64,000 nt of DNA from Escherichia coli (GCF_024700885.2 NZ_CP117016.1); one strand, 5' to 3'; positions 3,224-57,480 are shown, numbered from the stretch's first letter. Made by a program: numbers and translations. Notes: generated from the sequence alone by a model not told the origin.

Positions 3224-3418
3224 TTTTTGGTCCTTCTCTGGTGTTGTCTGGGAAGTGTAGAGCATGGCAGGGCGGGGTGCCTGGAGTGTGACAAAGGTTA
3301 CACATCGCTGTATGCAATGCTGAAAATTTCAGCACTTAGCGAGGTGCGAGCAAGCTGGCGCTTGCATGGTGGCGTGCGACAGGTATAATCCACAACGTTT
3401 TCCGCATACCTCTTCAGT

Positions 3419-3503
3419 GCCGAAGTGGCGAAATCGGTAGACGCAGTTGATTCAAAATCAACCGTAGAAATACGTGCCGGTTCGAGTCCGGCCTTCGGCA
3501 CCA
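3419..3503 (+). tRNA. leuX: tRNA-Leu (anticodon CAA)
   Basis: 85-nt sequence GCCGAAGTGG...TTCGAGTCCGGCCTTCGGCACCA with a CAA anticodon loop and long variable arm; genomic position after ahr. Confidence 0.9.
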
Positions 3504-4016
3504 AGTCACTAAATTCCTTACAATACAGGTAGTTAGACAATAAAATCTGTCTCTTTTGCCTGTAAGAAATGCTCTGTTATGTCCCTTGAAAAAGCCGCTG
3601 TGGTTGATAGTGGTAATTGGGATGTTAACTCATAGCGGCGTGTAGTTCCAAGCGTCAAACACGTACTGACTCAACTTGAAAGCTATGACGTAGCCACTGT
3701 CTCTAAACAATCCCAAAAACTTTTAGTGAAGCGCATTTTAGCCCGATGCCCCCGTTCTGCCGCTGTCGCGAGACGCCGCAGGGGATAAACAGGTTTATGG
3801 TGGTCACGGTACTTGCAGACCATATGCAAGCTCTGCCAGCGGTTCGGCCTCGCTCCCCTTGGGTACATGGTCATCCTGATAAGCCTCACTAACTGACATA
3901 ACTGTGATGTAGTCGCCAGAGGCTCCGCTTGTTGTCTTACCACCAACGGGGCTTTATGGATTCTATTGCGGTATGTTTGAAAGTGCGCGGGGGTTCATTC
4001 CCGCGCGTCCGGCGCT

Positions 4017-4931
4017 TTATGGTAAGTATTTAAGTATTTCTGCTGCCCAGTTTACACGGTGGATGACACGGGCATGGTGCAAGTTTCCGTCTAGTATTTC
4101 GGCTTTAGTTAGCTGGGATAACTGCTGCCAATTATTGTTAAGTATATAAGTTGCGTTATTACATTGTGAGCTTTCTAGCACGTAAATGTTTTGGCCTGTG
4201 AACCCAAATATCACGTAGCCTTGGAACCCAGCTTGCCCAACCGCTACGAAATCTGGTTTTTTACTATTGATAAGTTCAAGTCTGCCTTCAACAACAGCGG
4301 TATTGCCCTTTCCCCTGATCTTAATAGCTGAAAGGATTTTTGAGCCGATAGTACTCCAAGGCTGTTGACCCTGAGGCAGGAGGCTCCAGTTTAGTTTTAT
4401 AGATTTACTTTTAACGATGGTATTAAGTTGGTCGTCAACAGTTTCGCACAACCCAAAAAGCTCTAAAAAAAGATTAATGCAGTGAGCCACTAACTCTTTG
4501 TTGTTAGCTGTCAAACTTAGCTTTGGAGAGATGATCAACTTCTCCCCTTGAAGATTCTCTACAATCTTTAACTCTATGCTTGGTGGAGGGGTGAGGATTC
4601 TCTTGTAGCGCTTATACTCAATTTCACGAGTGTCAGTAACTTCTTGAGTTGCGCCCCCTCCGATCCATTGCTTTCTAGTCCATGAAATTTGTCTGTATGC
4701 AGTTTCTTTAGGTGCTGTTTTGTCAGGTACTGATTTGCCATTAGCATTGAATCTGGTTATTGGCCCTAAAATCTTGGGGAGGACTTCTTCACCTAAAGCT
4801 CTTTGACTTGAGAAACCAATAGAGTCCGTTTTCCCCGCATCTGGCAAAGAATGTGCAATGTAGATATCACGGCCATCAAAGTTAGGTATGTAATTATCAA
4901 TATTTCGAATACGCTTTTTCTGAATAAGCAT
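4017..4931 (-). CDS. Hypothetical protein, 304 aa, no family recognised
   Basis: Long ORF in AT-rich island DNA; no motif I can assign. Confidence 0.6.
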   Translation of the reverse strand: MLIQKKRIRNIDNYIPNFDGRDIYIAHSLPDAGKTDSIGFSSQRALGEEVLPKILGPITRFNANGKSVPDKTAPKETAYRQISWTRKQWIGGGATQEVTDTREIEYKRYKRILTPPPSIELKIVENLQGEKLIISPKLSLTANNKELVAHCINLFLELFGLCETVDDQLNTIVKSKSIKLNWSLLPQGQQPWSTIGSKILSAIKIRGKGNTAVVEGRLELINSKKPDFVAVGQAGFQGYVIFGFTGQNIYVLESSQCNNATYILNNNWQQLSQLTKAEILDGNLHHARVIHRVNWAAEILKYLP

Positions 4932-4994
4932 GGATCGTTCCTTTTGATTTTATCTTACTGTTTACATAACCAACCAAGCCGGGCACAATCGAGC

Positions 4995-5094
4995 CGTTAG
5001 AAACGATAGTGAGGCTAACAATCGTTATGAGTTTGCAGACTCATGGCGGTCATGCTTCATAGACCGGATTCACGCAGGTGACTCCGGTTTTTTT
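4995..5094 (+). ncRNA. Candidate small structured RNA with intrinsic terminator
   Basis: Three consecutive hairpins by eye (aacgat/atcgtt; atgagt/actcat; ccgga/tccgg) ending in a 7-T run at 5088-5094; possible sigma70-like promoter (tttaca-17 bp-cacaat) upstream. Confidence 0.3.
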
Positions 5095-5906
5095 ATGCCC
5101 ATCATTTATACATGAGCACAACATATAGGGTGTGTTAATAAGATTACCCCCTACATGTTCAGCATTCTAGTTAGGATTCTTTGCAGTACAAGGGGTGATT
5201 TTGAGGTTAAATTGAGGTTGTCAAAGGGAAATTTCGACCAACCCTACGTGCCGTAAGGCTTAGGCTGTATGTCAATGTTTCAGAAAAAAAATGAAAATTT
5301 GATCGAGTGCTGATTTCTTTAGCACGAGAACATGAGATCGAACCAAAATATTGCAAAGTTTTGAACAAAACTTGAGCTGCCTCGTGTCTCCATAGCCAAG
5401 ACGAATGCAGTTTAAATAAGCTAAGTCAGCTCTCAAAAGTCCTTTATGACCCGAACCAAAAATTGTACCTCTTAAACCCCCACCGCAAGCGGCTCTCCGG
5501 GGTTTGTGCGCGTGGAGTAATGCGATTGTACTGGGTATGTGCGCACAACCCTCTACAAGCCGCATTCTACCGTTAGCCTATAGCTGAATCCCCGGCTTGA
5601 AAAATTGCACGCTTATGGTTGCCCCTCCCTCAACTGTATAGCTCGCCCGCGCCCCCGTGCGCATGTGCGTGCCCGCGCGTCAGGGGTCGCTGAGAAAACC
5701 CTAAGATTTTGCTCATCCGAGACAACCGTTGCAGGCGCGCGTTGCCGGGGCACACTGTTAGTGTTTGATGGTGTCATCAATCGACCGTTTTCTGGCACCT
5801 CCCAATCGCACGCTTTCACACTGTTGGAAAAATAGCCTTGGCTTTTCTGGCAGGCCATCCTAATGTTGGCCTCGTTTTCTGGCAGGGGTCAGATGGGGAG
5901 ATAACA

Positions 5907-6467
5907 ATGGCAACTTTTGGCTACGGACGTGTTTCGACATCGCAGCAGGATACTGAGAACCAACGGCTGGAGCTTGGGCAGGCTGGGTGGCAAATTGATT
6001 ACTGGTTTGCCGATGTTGTTAGCGGGAAGGTTCCGGCAATGCAACGTAAAGCATTTTCTGAAATGCTCAATAAAATCCGCGATGGTGAAACGTTGGTGGT
6101 AGCGAAGCTTGATCGTCTGGGGCGTGATGCGATTGACGTCCTGCAAACGGTAAGGGCGCTGGCTGACCGTAATATCAAGGTTCTTGTCCACCAGCTTGGT
6201 AACACAGATCTCACTTCTGCCGCTGGGAAGTTGCTATTATCTATGCTCGCCGCGGTTGCGGAGATGGAGCGTGATCTGCTGATTGAGCGCACTCAGGCGG
6301 GACTATCACGAGCAAAAGCCGAAGGTAAGAAATTGGGCAGACCTCCTAAAATCGCGTCAGAAGCCCGTAGAGAGATTTTAGAGAAAAAGAATAGCGGTTT
6401 GAGTATCAGTGCGTTAGCGCGTCAATATGGCGTTTCAAGAGCGACTGTAGCAGCTATTACCGATTGA
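5907..6467 (+). CDS. Small serine recombinase (resolvase/invertase family)
   Basis: N-terminal GYGRVSTSQQ catalytic-serine motif and C-terminal HTH (LSISALARQYGVSRATV); start at MATFGYGRVS with SD ggggag. Confidence 0.85.
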   Translation: MATFGYGRVSTSQQDTENQRLELGQAGWQIDYWFADVVSGKVPAMQRKAFSEMLNKIRDGETLVVAKLDRLGRDAIDVLQTVRALADRNIKVLVHQLGNTDLTSAAGKLLLSMLAAVAEMERDLLIERTQAGLSRAKAEGKKLGRPPKIASEARREILEKKNSGLSISALARQYGVSRATVAAITD

Positions 6468-6480
6468 ATATGGAGAGTTT

Positions 6481-7326
6481 ATGGCTTACACAGCAACTGT
6501 TATCCCTGTAATGATTGCTTCTCCTGGTGATGTCGCTGAAGAGAGACAAGTCATTCGTGAAATGATCCATGAGTGGAATGATATAAATTCAGCTCGTTCA
6601 AAAGTAATGTTGACACCAATTGGATGGGAAACTCATACATCACCCGAATTAGGAGTTAGGCCTCAGAAGTTGATTAATCAAAGATTATTAGTAGATTGTG
6701 ATTTATTAATCGGTGTGTTTTGGACTCGTCTAGGCTCACCGACTGGGAACGAGGCCAGCGGAACAGTCGAAGAAATCCACCGTCATTTGAATGCGGGAAA
6801 ACCGGCAATGATTTACTTTTCCTCAAAGCCTGTTGCCCCTGAAAGCCTTGATAGAGAACAATATGAGTCTCTTAAATTGTTCAAAACTGAGTGCATGCAA
6901 AAGGGATTGATAGAGTCTTTTAATGACTTATCTGATTTCAAAGACAAAGTCCGTAGGCAACTTTCGATAATTATTTCTAGTAGCCCTTATTTGTCTTCTC
7001 TTATATCTACCATTAACAATTCTCCTGATGCGAATACAAGTCAATCTTTGCCAGAAAGTAATTTGTCCGCCGATGCACTCAGTTTGCTGAAATTGGCATG
7101 TGTCGATGATAGCGGAACAATTTATGTGATAAGGCATTTAGGTGGCACGGATATTCAAGCGGGAAATCAATCCTTTGGTGGAAGTTCGGCTAGAGAGGTA
7201 GCCCGTTGGGAGGGCGCACTTAACGAACTGTTATCCTTTGATTATGTGATTGAAAGAGGGGCAAAAGGACAAATGTATTATGTTACTCATAAAGGCTGGA
7301 CATTTCTTGAATCTTTAAATGAATAA
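6481..7326 (+). CDS. Hypothetical protein, 281 aa; N-terminal motif resembles DUF4062/TIR-like domains (tentative)
   Basis: Starts 13 bp after the recombinase stop with its own SD (ggagag); N-terminus VMIASPGDVAEERQVI fits a strand-SxxD-x-EER pattern; C-terminal half unassigned. Confidence 0.6.
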   Translation: MAYTATVIPVMIASPGDVAEERQVIREMIHEWNDINSARSKVMLTPIGWETHTSPELGVRPQKLINQRLLVDCDLLIGVFWTRLGSPTGNEASGTVEEIHRHLNAGKPAMIYFSSKPVAPESLDREQYESLKLFKTECMQKGLIESFNDLSDFKDKVRRQLSIIISSSPYLSSLISTINNSPDANTSQSLPESNLSADALSLLKLACVDDSGTIYVIRHLGGTDIQAGNQSFGGSSAREVARWEGALNELLSFDYVIERGAKGQMYYVTHKGWTFLESLNE

Positions 7327-7386
7327 TTAAATGCGAGGCCATTACATAAGTTTATTTTTGATGTGAGGGTGAATTCCCTCACATTT

Positions 7387-7881
7387 TTATTCGAAAGAGG
7401 CCGCAATGACTTCTCCTGTTTTTGCGTTGAAAACACAAAAGTATTGAAGCGGAGCTAGCATCCCCAAGCCGTTAACTACCTTAGCTTGTTGCCCAAATGC
7501 CTGAATAATCTTCGCATTCTCATCGTGCCAGAGATAAGTATTAAATACAGGCGCTTCGCTTTCTTGCCACACATGGCGAAACTTCGCTTTCTCATCCATT
7601 ACCTTTTTGCACTCCCTGACCGGGTTATGGTGCGTTTTCGCATAGCATTCCGGGTTGTCATCTGCACATACGATATCTTTTCGTGCTGTCTGATGCTCAG
7701 CACCTACAGCAGAAAAGGCGCATACGCCCAGCACCAATGAGAGAGTGCCCAGAGCACCCCATACAGTTGCGCGTAGCGTGCTGATGTGCTGCTTTGATAC
7801 AGCATGGGCAACTACACTATAACTGGCCCAGCTAATCGCGGCTCCCGCTGCAATCGGTAGTAAAAAGTCTGCTCCCGTCAT
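7387..7881 (-). CDS. Hypothetical membrane protein (two predicted TM helices plus Cys-containing soluble domain)
   Basis: ORF with hydrophobic N-terminal segments; start set at MTGADFLL with SD gaggga. Confidence 0.5.
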   Translation of the reverse strand: MTGADFLLPIAAGAAISWASYSVVAHAVSKQHISTLRATVWGALGTLSLVLGVCAFSAVGAEHQTARKDIVCADDNPECYAKTHHNPVRECKKVMDEKAKFRHVWQESEAPVFNTYLWHDENAKIIQAFGQQAKVVNGLGMLAPLQYFCVFNAKTGEVIAASFE

Positions 7882-8121
7882 GATTCCCTCACTTTCCAAA
7901 CCACATCGCGCCTGATAGCGAACGCTGGTGACGCCCAACCGATGATGATCATCATACTTGTTGGGTTTTAAATGTCACCATTGGTGTTTGTTTTGAATCA
8001 AAAAGGATTGTCATGATACAGCCGATGAATGCTAGTGACTAAGCTCGCTGACGTGAGATTGGATTCAAAATATCTCATATGGAGCGTGGCCTTACAGTGG
8101 TCAAAATTGCACATTCAGTGC

Positions 8122-8586
8122 ATGAAAAAATCCCTGAGAATACAGTTTGGCGAGCGGGTAAAAGAACTGCGCATTGCCACCGGATTGAGCCAGGAGGCCT
8201 TTGCCGATCGGTGCGGGTTTGCACGTAGTTATATGAGCAGAATTGAACGTGGTGGCTCTAATGCGTCTCTGGATGCGATTGAGGTGCTGGCTAACGCTCT
8301 GAGCGTTGAGCCGTGGCAGTTGTTAGCGCCTGGCCCATCTGAAGATAACGACTCGGAACTGTTGGTTCCATACGCAGCCGATGGTTCCTGTTTTCACCCC
8401 GGTTTGGCGAGCACCCGTGATGGCTCGTTTGGCGTAGGTGATAAAGCGGCTCAGAAGCGTTTTGGCACGTTTGCTGAAGCTCTTGAGTATCTTCGTAGCA
8501 TGGAGACAGCAAAATGGCGTAGGCCTAATCCTAGCGGCAACTGGGGTATCGTATCAGCGGTTCGGTGGGACAAACTGAGAAAGTAG
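8122..8586 (+). CDS. XRE-family HTH transcriptional regulator with unassigned C-terminal domain
   Basis: N-terminal HTH (LRIATGLSQEAFADRCGFARSYMSRIERG); start at MKKSLRIQ. Confidence 0.6.
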   Translation: MKKSLRIQFGERVKELRIATGLSQEAFADRCGFARSYMSRIERGGSNASLDAIEVLANALSVEPWQLLAPGPSEDNDSELLVPYAADGSCFHPGLASTRDGSFGVGDKAAQKRFGTFAEALEYLRSMETAKWRRPNPSGNWGIVSAVRWDKLRK

Positions 8587-9076
8587 CTCAAGTGTAAGTT
8601 TATGAATTTTCATGCTGTATGGATGAACAGTATTCATTAGATGCTGATAGTCTTATGTTTCATCAGCCCTTTGTTTCTATAAGAGTGAATAAAACAGCAA
8701 AATGCGGGTGCGTTACGTAGGCGTTACGGTGGCGTTTCGCTTTGGCTCTTAATGGCTTAATTCATATAAATAACATTGAGTTAAATAGTTATTCTGAACA
8801 AGGTCTGCCGGGGTCTAACTGGTTTCAAAATCCGAACGCAGTGGCGTTTATTCAACGTCCACATAGCTGACAAATGTTCTTTCCTCCCGACTCGGCAGAC
8901 CTCCAGAAACATTAAAAGGCAGGTATGGCACGTTGATGTTTTATGCCGCCACGAACACTCGGTTTGATTCCGTCCAGCGGATCAAACTTAATATGTAGCC
9001 CCTAGAACAAAAAGGTCCTACGATTGCTCTCTTAACAGCTAACAGGAACGTGATTACAGCAGGTTATAGAGACTTA

Positions 9077-9101
9077 GGTTCGAGTCCGGCCTTCGGCACC
9101 A
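9077..9101 (+). repeat. Direct repeat of leuX 3' end (att core copy)
   Basis: 25/25 identity to 3479-3503. Confidence 0.85.
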
Positions 9102-9287: not shown

Positions 9288-9878
9288 ATGGCATTAACAG
9301 ATATCAAAGTCAGAGCAGCCAAGCCAACGGATAAGCAATATAAGCTGACTGATGGTGGCGGTATGCATCTGCTTGTCCATCCAAATGGTTCTAAGTACTG
9401 GCGTTTGCAGTACCGTTATGAGGGAAAGCAAAAAATGCTGGCACTTGGGGTTTATCCTGAAATCACACTAGCGGATGCCAGAGTACGTCGTGACGAGGCG
9501 CGTAAGCTGCTTGCGAATGGCGTCGATCCGGGAGACAAAAAGAAAAATGATAAGGTTGAACAGAGTAAAGCACGAACCTTTAAAGAAGTCGCGATTGAGT
9601 GGCATGGCACCAATAAAAAGTGGTCTGAAGATCACGCCCATCGTGTGCTAAAAAGTCTTGAAGATAATCTTTTTGCAGCGCTTGGTGAACGTAATATCGC
9701 TGAGTTAAAAACTCGAGATTTATTAGCACCTATTGTTCCTTTAACCATCCGCAATGGCCAACGGTTTACAGAGCATAATACGAATAGCCGTAGAGCCAGC
9801 CAGTTACGGTGGTCGCGATGGTGTGTCCGCCAGAAAATCACCACGAATACCAGAATCGCGGCACTGACCAGAAAATGA
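9288..9878 (+). pseudogene. P4-type tyrosine integrase (IntB-like), N-terminal ~150 aa only
   Basis: MALTD.KVRAAKPTDK...YWRLQYRYEGKQKMLALGVYPE matches the P4-integrase N-terminal arm; similarity is lost near 9740 and the catalytic domain is absent. Confidence 0.75.
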
Positions 9879-10406
9879 TAAACAGGAAACACGGGGAGGT
9901 TCACTTTGCTTTCTCCTGTAGTATTTTCTGTAGGTTCTGAACCGGTTCGAGCGGGGTTGTGAGGCTGATGGCAATCCCCGGGCTCTTCCTGCATGTTACA
10001 CTGGTACTGCAACAGGGGGCCTTCGCTCCTATGACATTACTCAGTATTTTCACTACTACACCCCATCTGCCATCCATAACAACCGATTCACCCCCTCGGG
10101 AGGCGTTGTTGCCCGTCACCCGGACAGGCATCGTTATGGACTTCTCTTGTTGCACGATCGATCAATTGTTATGCATGCTGACACCACTACCCCGGTGGGT
10201 ATGACCGATGCCTTTCTCACTCTCTTCCCGGTCATCGTCGGCCTTCCCCGTTATTGTGGCGTGTCGGCACCATCGACGGCATTTCGATGGCTGCTCAGTG
10301 TTCACTCACGTTACGGCCCGCATAACCCATTGACTTCCTGAAGAAGTCGTTTCAGGGAGAGATTCAGCCCTTTTGTTACCTCCTGGACCGCTTCCTGTCC
10401 TTCCAG

Positions 10407-10681
10407 TTGGAGCGAGAGTTAGTCGGGGCGGACTTTCACCGACGGAAAGATCGTGCATTTCAAGGCACACACAACAATATCTGCGAGCGTGCTATCCGTC
10501 CGGTCGTTATGGGACGAAAGGCCTGGTTGTTCGCTGGTTCACTGATGGCCGGGAACCGAGCGGCACAGATAATGAGCCTTCTGGAAACAGCAGTCTGGAG
10601 CCACATGCTTGGCTGACGGACGTCCTAACGCGTCTGCCCGGAGTGGCCGGAGGAGAGGTTGGCAGAGTTACTGCCTCTTGA
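10407..10681 (+). pseudogene. IS66-family transposase (TnpC) C-terminal fragment
   Basis: ERAIRPVVMGRKAWLFAGS motif in one frame, continuation in another. Confidence 0.55.
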
Positions 10682-57108: not shown

Positions 57109-57227
57109 ACACTCTGCCAGGGGAAATGCCTGATTACATTGCGTTAACCAACTGAAAACATGACACAAACACCTCATGCCCCTCCTGTTTCTCTTGCGTG
57201 ACTGCTCTGCTGTTAATAGAATAAAAC

Positions 57228-57263
57228 GATCGATAAAACAGGTATCGATCGTTACTATCGATC
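57228..57263. promoter_or_regulatory. agn43 phase-variation switch: three GATC Dam sites in the OxyR-binding region
   Basis: GATC at 57228, 57247 and 57260 within cgatcgataaaacaggtatcgatcgttactatcgatcg, upstream of flu. Confidence 0.75.
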
Positions 57264-57422
57264 GTTTATAGTGGTTAATGGTCTGCGAAAAGGCAGCTGA
57301 ATCTCTTCATCATGCAGAACGGAATTGCACACAACGGACTGATACTTCTCTGGCGGATGAGAGAGGGGAAGCATTTATGTCCGGGAAAAACCACTTTATC
57401 TGACCATGCTGTTTTGTACCTG

Positions 57423-57457
57423 CCGGTATCCACATTTGTGGGTACCGGCTTTTTTAT
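57423..57457 (+). terminator. Rho-independent terminator-like hairpin in the agn43 leader
   Basis: 11-bp stem ccggtatccac...gtgggtaccgg with one G-U pair, then CTTTTTTATT, 24 bp upstream of the flu ATG. Confidence 0.6.
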
Positions 57458-57480
57458 TCACCCTCTGTAAGGAAAAGCTG

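Follow-up and report, generated by a model that had tools for sequence, protein, structure and literature searches.

A putative cis-antisense small RNA carried by a portable promoter-leader unit of mobile elements in Enterobacterales

What is the role of the 975 base pairs (bp) that separate two divergently oriented genes in a mobile islet at the tRNA gene leuX of Escherichia coli? The gap (4932-5906) lies in a 64-kb stretch of the E. coli sequence NZ_CP117016.1 (the window, to which all coordinates refer), between a gene for a protein of 304 amino acids (aa), hereafter the cargo gene, and the gene of a small serine recombinase. RefSeq annotates nothing in it, and the open reading frames (ORFs) of 53-97 aa that can be called mechanically match no Pfam or PHROG family, one of them spanning a recombination junction. 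This agrees with the initial annotation of this DNA, which had seen no convincing ORF in the ~0.9-kb gap; neither an ORF nor a family match points to the decayed ORF that it had named as the outcome speaking against its view. It had proposed a terminated small RNA (sRNA) of ~100 nucleotides (nt) on the plus strand. Here, we propose, with a probability of roughly 0.6, that this sRNA acts as a cis-antisense repressor of the cargo messenger RNA (mRNA) and belongs to a portable module. Its conservation, strand, structure and portability are observed; we infer the production of both RNAs, their pairing, the direction of the effect and its trigger.

The plus-strand unit opens with a predicted sigma70-type promoter whose -35, spacer and -10 are identical in all 30 distinct variants found in genomes and metagenomes. 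The match alone is at chance level (2 found against 1.5 expected), and the promoter carries weight because it is conserved, not because of its match score. Transcription would start at about 4993-4996 and end at the U-run. In 29 of the 30 variants the terminator stem leads into a T-run, the remaining one, from Pectobacterium, having T4, and the seven Ts after the last hairpin had been recognized correctly from the start. A simple terminator scan missed this terminator owing to an internal mismatch and the size of the loop. Three consecutive hairpins had been described here; two are robust, the long hairpin 5009-5060 and the terminator 5061-5087, and the small 5' hairpin at 4995-5005 is not retained in relatives. 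The segment 4990-5100 as a whole folds with -42.2 kcal/mol (z = -4.76), and none of 200 shuffles folds as well.

The pairing is retained in homologues, and it can be assigned to one strand. In an alignment of 12 sequences RNAalifold returns -19.3 kcal/mol with 27 pairs for the plus strand against -6.7 kcal/mol with 10 pairs for the minus strand. A core-pattern scan of metagenomes together with a viral scan added 58 loci, 44 with the sRNA core and 14 that match the pattern by chance. For 29 distinct sequences the values become -27.5 (plus) and -11.7 (minus). Across these 29 sequences and 28 pairs, 95.4% of the 809 pair cells are paired in the named structure, with 610 Watson-Crick pairs, 162 G-U pairs and 11 A-C combinations. 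Since G-U pairs turn into A-C mismatches on the other strand, the excess of 162 over 11 assigns the structure to the plus strand. Changes on both sides occur in nine pairs, compared with 3.9 +/- 1.5 in shuffles (one of 500 reaches nine), and the covariation score is matched by none of 500 shuffles, a type of test that overstates significance for related sequences such as those aligned here. Controls in which the partner column was slid give less than 50% pairing.

A covariance model of the sRNA scores 114.7 bits at 4991-5097, the sole strong match in the window. It finds no match in the loci of distant cargo homologues. The search against Rfam 15 at gathering and permissive thresholds, which had been advised for the gap, returns no RNA family there: in 3300-7000 only the tRNA is matched, and the best other hit, potC (E = 0.33), has 22.8 bits where the threshold is 44. 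The marks by which an sRNA gene can be recognized in sequence, i.e., a promoter of its own, an intrinsic terminator and a conserved structure on the transcribed strand, all appear to be present. Most likely, the ~100-nt plus-strand RNA predicted here is an sRNA outside the described families, with its own promoter and intrinsic terminator. The earlier proposal of such a promoter-to-terminator unit is supported by the conserved promoter, the U-tail, the G-U pairing, the compensatory changes and the recurrence of the element.

What this RNA would act on is suggested by a second predicted promoter, P1, which lies beyond the sRNA terminator on the minus strand and points at the cargo gene. Among 31 distinct sequences, 29 retain its hexamers in the form TTGTRC and TARAAT. 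A transcript starting near 5157 would carry a leader of ~226 nt that covers the whole sRNA gene. The sRNA and the cargo mRNA would thus be convergent and cis-antisense, because the P1 leader would contain the full complement of the sRNA, an arrangement deduced from promoter conservation. At the 5' end of this putative leader two hairpins, A and B, show compensatory changes in both stems. Upstream of P1, a conserved block contains two TTGAGGTT repeats 11 bp apart (5201-5208 and 5212-5219), a conserved TTGACA on the minus strand (5270-5275) and an A8/T8 run (5284-5291), and is presumably a regulator-binding or UP-type region. The ~35 nt that separate the module edge from the cargo ribosome-binding site contain no convincing alternative promoter; a proximal cargo promoter in 4932-4960 was considered and dropped, as TAAGAT/TAAGTT resembles a -10 there and no usable -35 accompanies it. 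A leader peptide on the minus strand was likewise rejected, not being conserved.

By these comparisons P1, the upstream block, the two leader hairpins, and the sRNA gene with its promoter form a portable module of ~370 bp. Genes for the 304-aa protein occur in unrelated contexts in Ewingella, Serratia, Leclercia, Pantoea, Enterobacter, Pectobacterium, Pseudescherichia and Kluyvera, all preceded by 450-1,000 bp of gene-free DNA. DNA homology to the window extends through this gene-free stretch up to position 5356, with strong conservation blocks from the cargo start codon to ~5330. The sRNA itself recurs in about ten genera and in many metagenome contigs. Indeed, the same sRNA, hairpins and P1 stand ahead of an unrelated cysteine-rich protein of 88 aa (phrog_3941) in ~18 metagenome loci and one Enterobacter asburiae replicon, and the E. 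asburiae copy, which was outside the training set, is recovered by the covariance model with 80.5 bits. In these cassettes the 304-aa gene is absent, the 88-aa gene takes its position, and DUF4062 or other genes come next. The two cassette types cease to be homologous just past the sRNA -35, which leaves ~35 nt to the ribosome-binding site that each gene has of its own. The sRNA segment reaches 80-86% identity in five enterobacterial comparisons (Enterobacter, Leclercia, Pseudescherichia, Serratia), the coding sequence 70-75%.

Several side observations concern the 88-aa cassettes and the P1 block. The 88-aa protein carries an HKCCGCAY motif in six loci, two of which have a gene for a 340-aa DUF4062 protein after it; the window islet has a DUF4062 protein of its own. 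Distant phrog_3941 relatives occur in three Salmonella and Escherichia phage records, one of them named BIS08P22. The 'MLI' N-terminus that the two cargo types seemed to share was spurious, created by an in-frame start further upstream. The P1 block alone (5118-5320), unannotated, is found at 73-81% identity in 27 records of a plasmid collection, mostly non-mobilizable plasmids of 60-130 kb from Citrobacter, Klebsiella, Enterobacter, Salmonella, Leclercia and Kosakonia. In an aligned 89-kb E. coli plasmid (4972-5170) the P1 block comes without the sRNA and is followed by a different terminator on the opposite strand, with ~600 bp lacking a convincing gene downstream of the block. Such a combination may represent a second, related antisense module.

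In the mechanism that we consider, P1 would transcribe the cargo mRNA with its ~226-nt leader, to which the sRNA would be perfectly complementary along its whole length. Pairing of the sRNA with the leader would lead to cleavage or destabilisation of the duplex and to repression of the cargo, and the convergent sRNA and P1 promoters would interfere with each other, adding to the repression. Mobile elements of the Enterobacterales would place this module ahead of different cargo genes. The cargo would remain silent until the balance shifts, e.g., when host transcription collapses in phage infection, as in hok/sok-type circuits. By analogy with such systems, antisense repression of a tightly controlled, possibly toxic or defensive cargo is the most likely role of the sRNA. 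Of the three roles initially offered for the gap (a regulatory RNA, an RNA antitoxin or recombination sites), a regulatory RNA fits best and an antitoxin fits only in the type I sense; sequences resembling recombination sites do exist, elsewhere in the gap (5772-5884).

A number of points weigh against antisense repression. The -10 of the sRNA promoter, CACAAT, is imperfect, the -35 of P1 agrees with the consensus at only three of six positions, and the starts of both transcripts are placed from consensus hexamers. The inner helices of the sRNA are near-invariant, the covariation coming mostly from the terminator stem, and the relatedness of the aligned sequences inflates the shuffle statistics given above. 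The leader yielded neither an anti-Shine-Dalgarno element nor an attenuator, and none of the PADLOC models covers the 304-aa protein. The identities are reversed in Ewingella and Pantoea, with 55-61% for the sRNA segment and 72-82% for the gene; both patterns are consistent with an exchange of modules.

A bolder, tentative extension, to which we give a clearly smaller chance than to antisense repression as such, would make the module a gene-independent 'arming switch' for abortive-infection or toxic cargo, released once host transcription is shut off by a phage. The antisense RNA, being short-lived, would then restrain a long-lived leader mRNA protected by its hairpins, and any unrelated effector gene recombined behind the sRNA -35 junction would come under the same control. 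The module would be a portable RNA-based sensor, with related modules of a promoter plus an opposite terminator in phage-plasmids.

Among the explanations that dispense with an antisense RNA, the best surviving, though unlikely, one is that the plus-strand element is an intrinsic terminator or insulator only, stopping read-through from leuX or from within the cargo before it reaches P1 and the backbone, with no discrete sRNA and an unused 'promoter'. The strongest covariation indeed sits in the terminator stem (six of the nine covarying pairs), the T-run is nearly universal, leuX lies upstream and is transcribed in the same direction, and the -10 is imperfect. A terminator, however, leaves unexplained the near-constant 50-nt hairpin upstream of it and the invariance of the whole promoter, as well as the retention of the region under exchange of the cargo, with the junction directly after the -35.

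A coding role, as a small mRNA or as a dual-function sRNA for the mini-protein MSLQTHGGHAS (5027-5062, plus strand), is still less probable. Codons one to eight of the mini-protein survive in 26 of the 29 sequences, its frame has 13 synonymous and 12 non-synonymous changes against 5:17 and 5:18 in the other frames, and a GAGG lies upstream. This GAGG, however, is 12 nt from an ATG that the main stem encloses, conservation does not extend to the stop codon (the length varies from 11 to more than 23 codons, often running into the terminator), the variable sites lack a third-position bias (4, 4, 5), and the synonymous sites are those that form loops or G-U pairs in the RNA structure. In neither Ewingella nor Pantoea eucrina does the frame survive.

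Slightly behind this comes the proposal that the conserved structure acts on the minus strand, in the cargo mRNA, as a cis-regulatory 5' untranslated region, i.e., a riboswitch, a thermosensor or a protein-binding leader, the plus strand being irrelevant. P1 should transcribe through the region, the module behaves as a transferable leader, and hairpins A and B do fold better on the minus strand, with -21.9 kcal/mol (z = -3.44) for their region against -13.7 kcal/mol (z = -1.5) on the plus strand. Within 4991-5097, however, the pairing is plus-strand-specific in both its G-U content and its consensus energy, on the minus strand an A-run precedes the hairpin and no U-run follows it, and no cis-regulatory Rfam family is matched, potC staying below threshold.

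We regard as very improbable that the RNA is a protein-binding antitoxin resembling those of type III toxin-antitoxin (TA) systems, neutralising the 304-aa protein directly. The RNA does adjoin an uncharacterised, tightly regulated cargo gene of mobile elements; in ToxIN-like systems, however, the antitoxin RNA is a tandem-repeat array on the same strand, whereas here it lies on the opposite strand and has no tandem repeats. The same RNA also accompanies the unrelated 88-aa protein, 304-aa homologues outside the Enterobacterales lack it, and the copy in a Proteus P2 prophage has only 133 bp upstream. Weakest of all is the idea that the whole gap is junk, i.e., decayed coding sequence and functionless recombination scars, which suits its several recombination junctions and the lack of signal in the spacer 5357-5477 and the GC-rich tract but not the failure of every gap ORF to match a family, nor a module that has intact promoters and structure across genera and outconserves the adjacent gene in five enterobacterial comparisons, and which already fails for 4960-5330.

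The features on which this argument is built, together with those of the surrounding islet, are collected in Table 1.

Table 1. Positions of the predicted elements and of their neighbours in the window.
Feature	Position	Strand	Basis or details
tRNA-Leu(CAA), leuX	3419-3503		
Cargo gene, 304 aa	4017-4931	-	722 homologues in bacteria and archaea
Putative sRNA promoter	4961-4989	+	-35 TTTACA (4961-4966), 17-nt spacer, -10 CACAAT (4984-4989); consensus scan and conservation
Candidate ~100-nt sRNA	4991-5097	+	long imperfect hairpin 5009-5060, terminator stem 5061-5087, T7 5088-5094
Leader hairpins A (5122-5157) and B (5096-5118), inferred 5' end of cargo mRNA	5096-5157	-	compensatory changes
Putative promoter P1	5164-5191	-	-35 TTGTAC (5186-5191), 16-nt spacer, -10 TAGAAT (5164-5169); aims at the 304-aa gene
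Conserved block upstream of P1	5192-5330	-	conserved in Enterobacter, Leclercia, Pectobacterium, Pseudescherichia
Islet-type-specific spacer	5357-5477	.	outside the Ewingella/Leclercia cassette homology and outside the backbone homology
Non-coding backbone of leuX-integrating satellite-like element	5478-5739	.	92.6-96.9% identity in other leuX islets
Putative recombinase-binding-type repeats	5772-5884	+	repeat family D1; 26-bp palindrome and two more motif copies
Small serine recombinase, resolvase/invertase type, 186 aa	5907-6467	+	Pfam Resolvase plus HTH_7
DUF4062 protein of the islet	6481-7326		

The module takes up only part of the gap, which is no single unit between two functionally paired genes and turns out to be a mosaic of four unrelated modules: the ~370-bp regulatory module (~4960-5330), the islet-specific spacer, the backbone 5478-5739 and the recombinase-type repeats 5772-5884. 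This follows from the different distributions of its sub-segments when these are searched separately. The segment 4940-5480 is present in only ~93-95 of 5,426 E. coli genomes, nearly all identical, 5470-5790 occurs in 147 genomes, in three sequence classes, and 5775-5950 has 91% identity to DNA upstream of plasmid recombinase genes. Other leuX islets have 3504-3969 in common with the window and become homologous again from 5475, 5486 or 5591; between these shared arms they hold different cargo, and beyond them different recombinases. One strain has an 'empty' site in which 47 bp link 3969 to 5486. By these islet comparisons, 3970-5485 is an inserted cargo cassette, 5478-5739 the backbone of the element, and the DNA from ~5784 a swapped-in recombinase module, with recombination junctions at 3969/3970, 5485/5486, 5591 and ~5784.

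In the strain with the 'empty' site the complete element has ~15 kb and looks like a phage satellite, since it carries genes for a DEAD-box helicase, a capsid protein, HNH nucleases, a methyltransferase and a distal tyrosine integrase. A family of such satellite-like elements comprises five loci, among them the ~15-kb stretch from leuX to the distal integrase in NZ_CM132257, which have this set of genes together with one for a serine recombinase. Four of the five are located at leuX and the fifth adjoins a different integrase. Their variable slot, from the arm on the side of the left attachment site (attL) to the recombinase, holds AbiJ-NTD4, DUF3800 or DUF4145 genes or is empty.

The GC-rich tract with repeats, to which the initial annotation had also drawn attention, belongs to the backbone of this different element, which is kept in leuX islets with different cargo and different recombinases. 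The tract spans ~5636-5690, with GCCCGCGC at 5645 and 5671 and GTGCGC-type repeats in between. The repeats are thus present as described; however, they give no signal beyond composition. Five copies of GCCCGCGC in the window compare with 2.4 expected, a number reached in 9 of 100 shuffles, and neither strand of 5620-5700, within the stretch that had been proposed for folding, is more stable than its shuffles (z = -0.03 and -0.40). All of 5591-5739 is conserved backbone with no detectable structure. Further upstream, a 23-nt imperfect inverted repeat (5489-5511/5541-5563) has one compensatory change between two islet types, and the fold signal of 5478-5570 is modest on both strands (z ~ -2.4), in a segment (5478-5590) of which only two or three sequence variants exist. 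An origin of transfer (oriT) of MOBQ-like type (GTGCGC...CCCT) in 5478-5570 was dropped given the absence of a relaxase context and the two or three variants. Two scans of viral contigs for the backbone segment gave no matches.

A perfect 9-bp inverted repeat, CAAGCCGGG/CCCGGCTTG, was noted at 4975-4983, in the conserved spacer of the sRNA promoter, and at 5591-5599, exactly where the backbone homology of two other islets starts. An invertible promoter switch bounded by it was rejected: about two such repeats are expected by chance in the region, they are unlike hix/gix sites, and no inverted isoform occurs among 93 E. coli genomes.

The remaining part of the gap goes with the recombinase, for which the best matches among proteins of solved structure are gamma-delta and Tn3 resolvase and Gin invertase. 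Upstream of its gene CGTTTTCTGGCA occurs three times (5786, 5841-5852, 5873-5884), the first copy being part of a 26-bp imperfect palindrome, TGTCATCAATCG-AC-CGTTTTCTGGCA (5772-5797), with 8 of 12 arm positions symmetric and 9 of 12 in the plasmid homologue. The motif cores lie at -118, -63 and -31, closely matched by -117, -62 and -31 in the plasmid homologue, and an inverted partner is recognizable for the first copy only. Every other recombinase type carries a triple motif of its own. Probably, 5772-5884 holds binding or autoregulatory sites of the recombinase. Like Tn3/gamma-delta res and the hix/gix sites, it has three copies of a 12-bp motif immediately ahead of the gene of a small serine recombinase, and the first copy forms a crossover-site-like imperfect palindrome of 12 + 2 + 12 bp. 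Unlike in those systems, the other two copies have no convincing inverted partner, no second site occurs in the window, where further copies are scattered at chance level and unclustered, and no transposase or invertible segment has been identified. The palindrome of the window is a hybrid that combines the left arm of one recombinase type with the right arm of another, the homology breaking off at the core. A hybrid of this kind is what two related sites would yield after site-specific exchange, yet the core dinucleotides differ (TT vs AC). Three other loci combine identical cargo and module with serine recombinases at the same position that are only 32-47% identical to that of the window. 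Roughly a quarter of the loci with enough flank have a serine recombinase in the same orientation 0.6-1 kb past the sRNA, and two more have one at 2.3-3 kb.

The region as a whole is 100% identical to several E. coli chromosomes. The last 25 bases of leuX (3479-3503) are repeated directly at 9077-9101, which delimits a 5.6-kb islet (3504-9101) inserted at leuX. It contains the cargo gene (minus strand), the gap, the 186-aa serine recombinase, the DUF4062 protein, a 183-aa ORF and a helix-turn-helix (HTH) protein. The copy of the repeat at 9077-9101, which bounds the islet, stands directly ahead of a truncated P4-type integrase (9288-9878), indicating that islands have piled up in tandem at leuX. 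Elsewhere in the window Rfam detects group II intron domains D1-D4 (66.3 bits, 10306-10445, minus strand) among insertion sequence (IS) and transposase fragments, and an IS102 RNA (74.6 bits, 57226-57462, plus strand).

The cargo gene itself belongs to a family whose members are ~40-50% identical across phyla. Its product matches no Pfam, PADLOC or PHROG family, and a confident AlphaFold2 model with a predicted local distance difference test (pLDDT) score of 83 is of mixed alpha/beta type and has no convincing fold match. Just past its stop codon the sequence reads as a G+C-rich hairpin, GCGCGGGG...CCCGCGC (3985-4006), likely a terminator at the end of the cargo transcription unit. In Proteus the homologue sits between the P2-type tail genes V and S of a P2 prophage, and in E. 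coli the cargo occupies the variable end of the satellite-like element; both positions give hints of a role in defence or competition. Distant homologues often adjoin a divergent LexA-like or sigma-like regulator, which fits a cargo that would need tight control. In bacteria of the candidate phyla radiation (CPR) the family is often paired with a divergent LexA-like repressor, and in Burkholderiales with a three-gene operon whose first gene encodes a sigma-like protein. Enterobacterial homologues share the non-coding module instead of a divergent regulator gene; a decayed partner of this kind (195-240 aa in the distant homologues) was looked for in the gap and rejected, with no ORF and no family match. 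Literature searches on the accession of the 304-aa protein and on antisense RNAs in defence islands returned nothing on this locus.

Overall, the initial observation is partly confirmed and its sRNA interpretation partly supported. If the RNA is real, annotators miss a control element of a widespread, uncharacterised cargo gene of mobile elements, a new antisense RNA family joins the short list known in E. coli, and a gene of 100 nt becomes a handle on the silencing of cargo in the variable regions of phages and satellites. That the same promoter-leader-antisense unit precedes unrelated genes suggests an exchange of cassettes that comprises the regulation as well as the effector. Cloning of candidate defence genes 'with native promoter' may consequently carry a repressor along unnoticed.

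How does the predicted arrangement compare with known antisense systems? Hok/sok and other type I TA loci (Sok, SymR/SymE, RalA/RalR) share with it a short terminated antisense RNA with its own promoter, encoded within the leader of an mRNA whose promoter lies further upstream. They also reside on mobile DNA, and the expected logic, an unstable antisense RNA restraining a stable mRNA, is the same. The regulated protein differs, being a soluble protein of 304 aa or a cysteine-rich one of 88 aa here and a small membrane peptide (hydrophobic, usually below ~60 aa) there. In addition, the sRNA has no match to the type I antitoxin families in Rfam, one module serves unrelated genes, and the sRNA lies off the ribosome-binding site, ending ~60 nt upstream of the ATG. 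The antisense geometry of type I loci would apply if the mRNA starts at the predicted promoter P1.

RNA-OUT/RNA-IN of IS10 and sar of phage P22 are similar in that expression of a potentially harmful gene is limited by a stable antisense RNA of stem-loop form, whose promoter faces that of the target. Their RNAs overlap the 5' end and ribosome-binding site of the target, whereas the present one would be internal to a long leader, and only here is the module exchanged between cargo genes. The case of CopA/CopT of plasmid R1 differs in that the gene regulated here is not a replication initiator, no leader peptide for translational coupling was found, and neither the sequence nor the model is similar to our sRNA. 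In its architecture CopA/CopT is comparable, with an antisense RNA of ~90-100 nt made of stem-loops and a terminator, convergent promoters, and complementarity to the leader tens of nt upstream of the regulated start codon. In summary, the locus would represent a new, unannotated family within a known kind of regulator, namely cis-antisense sRNAs embedded in a promoter-leader module that is portable among mobile elements of the Enterobacterales.

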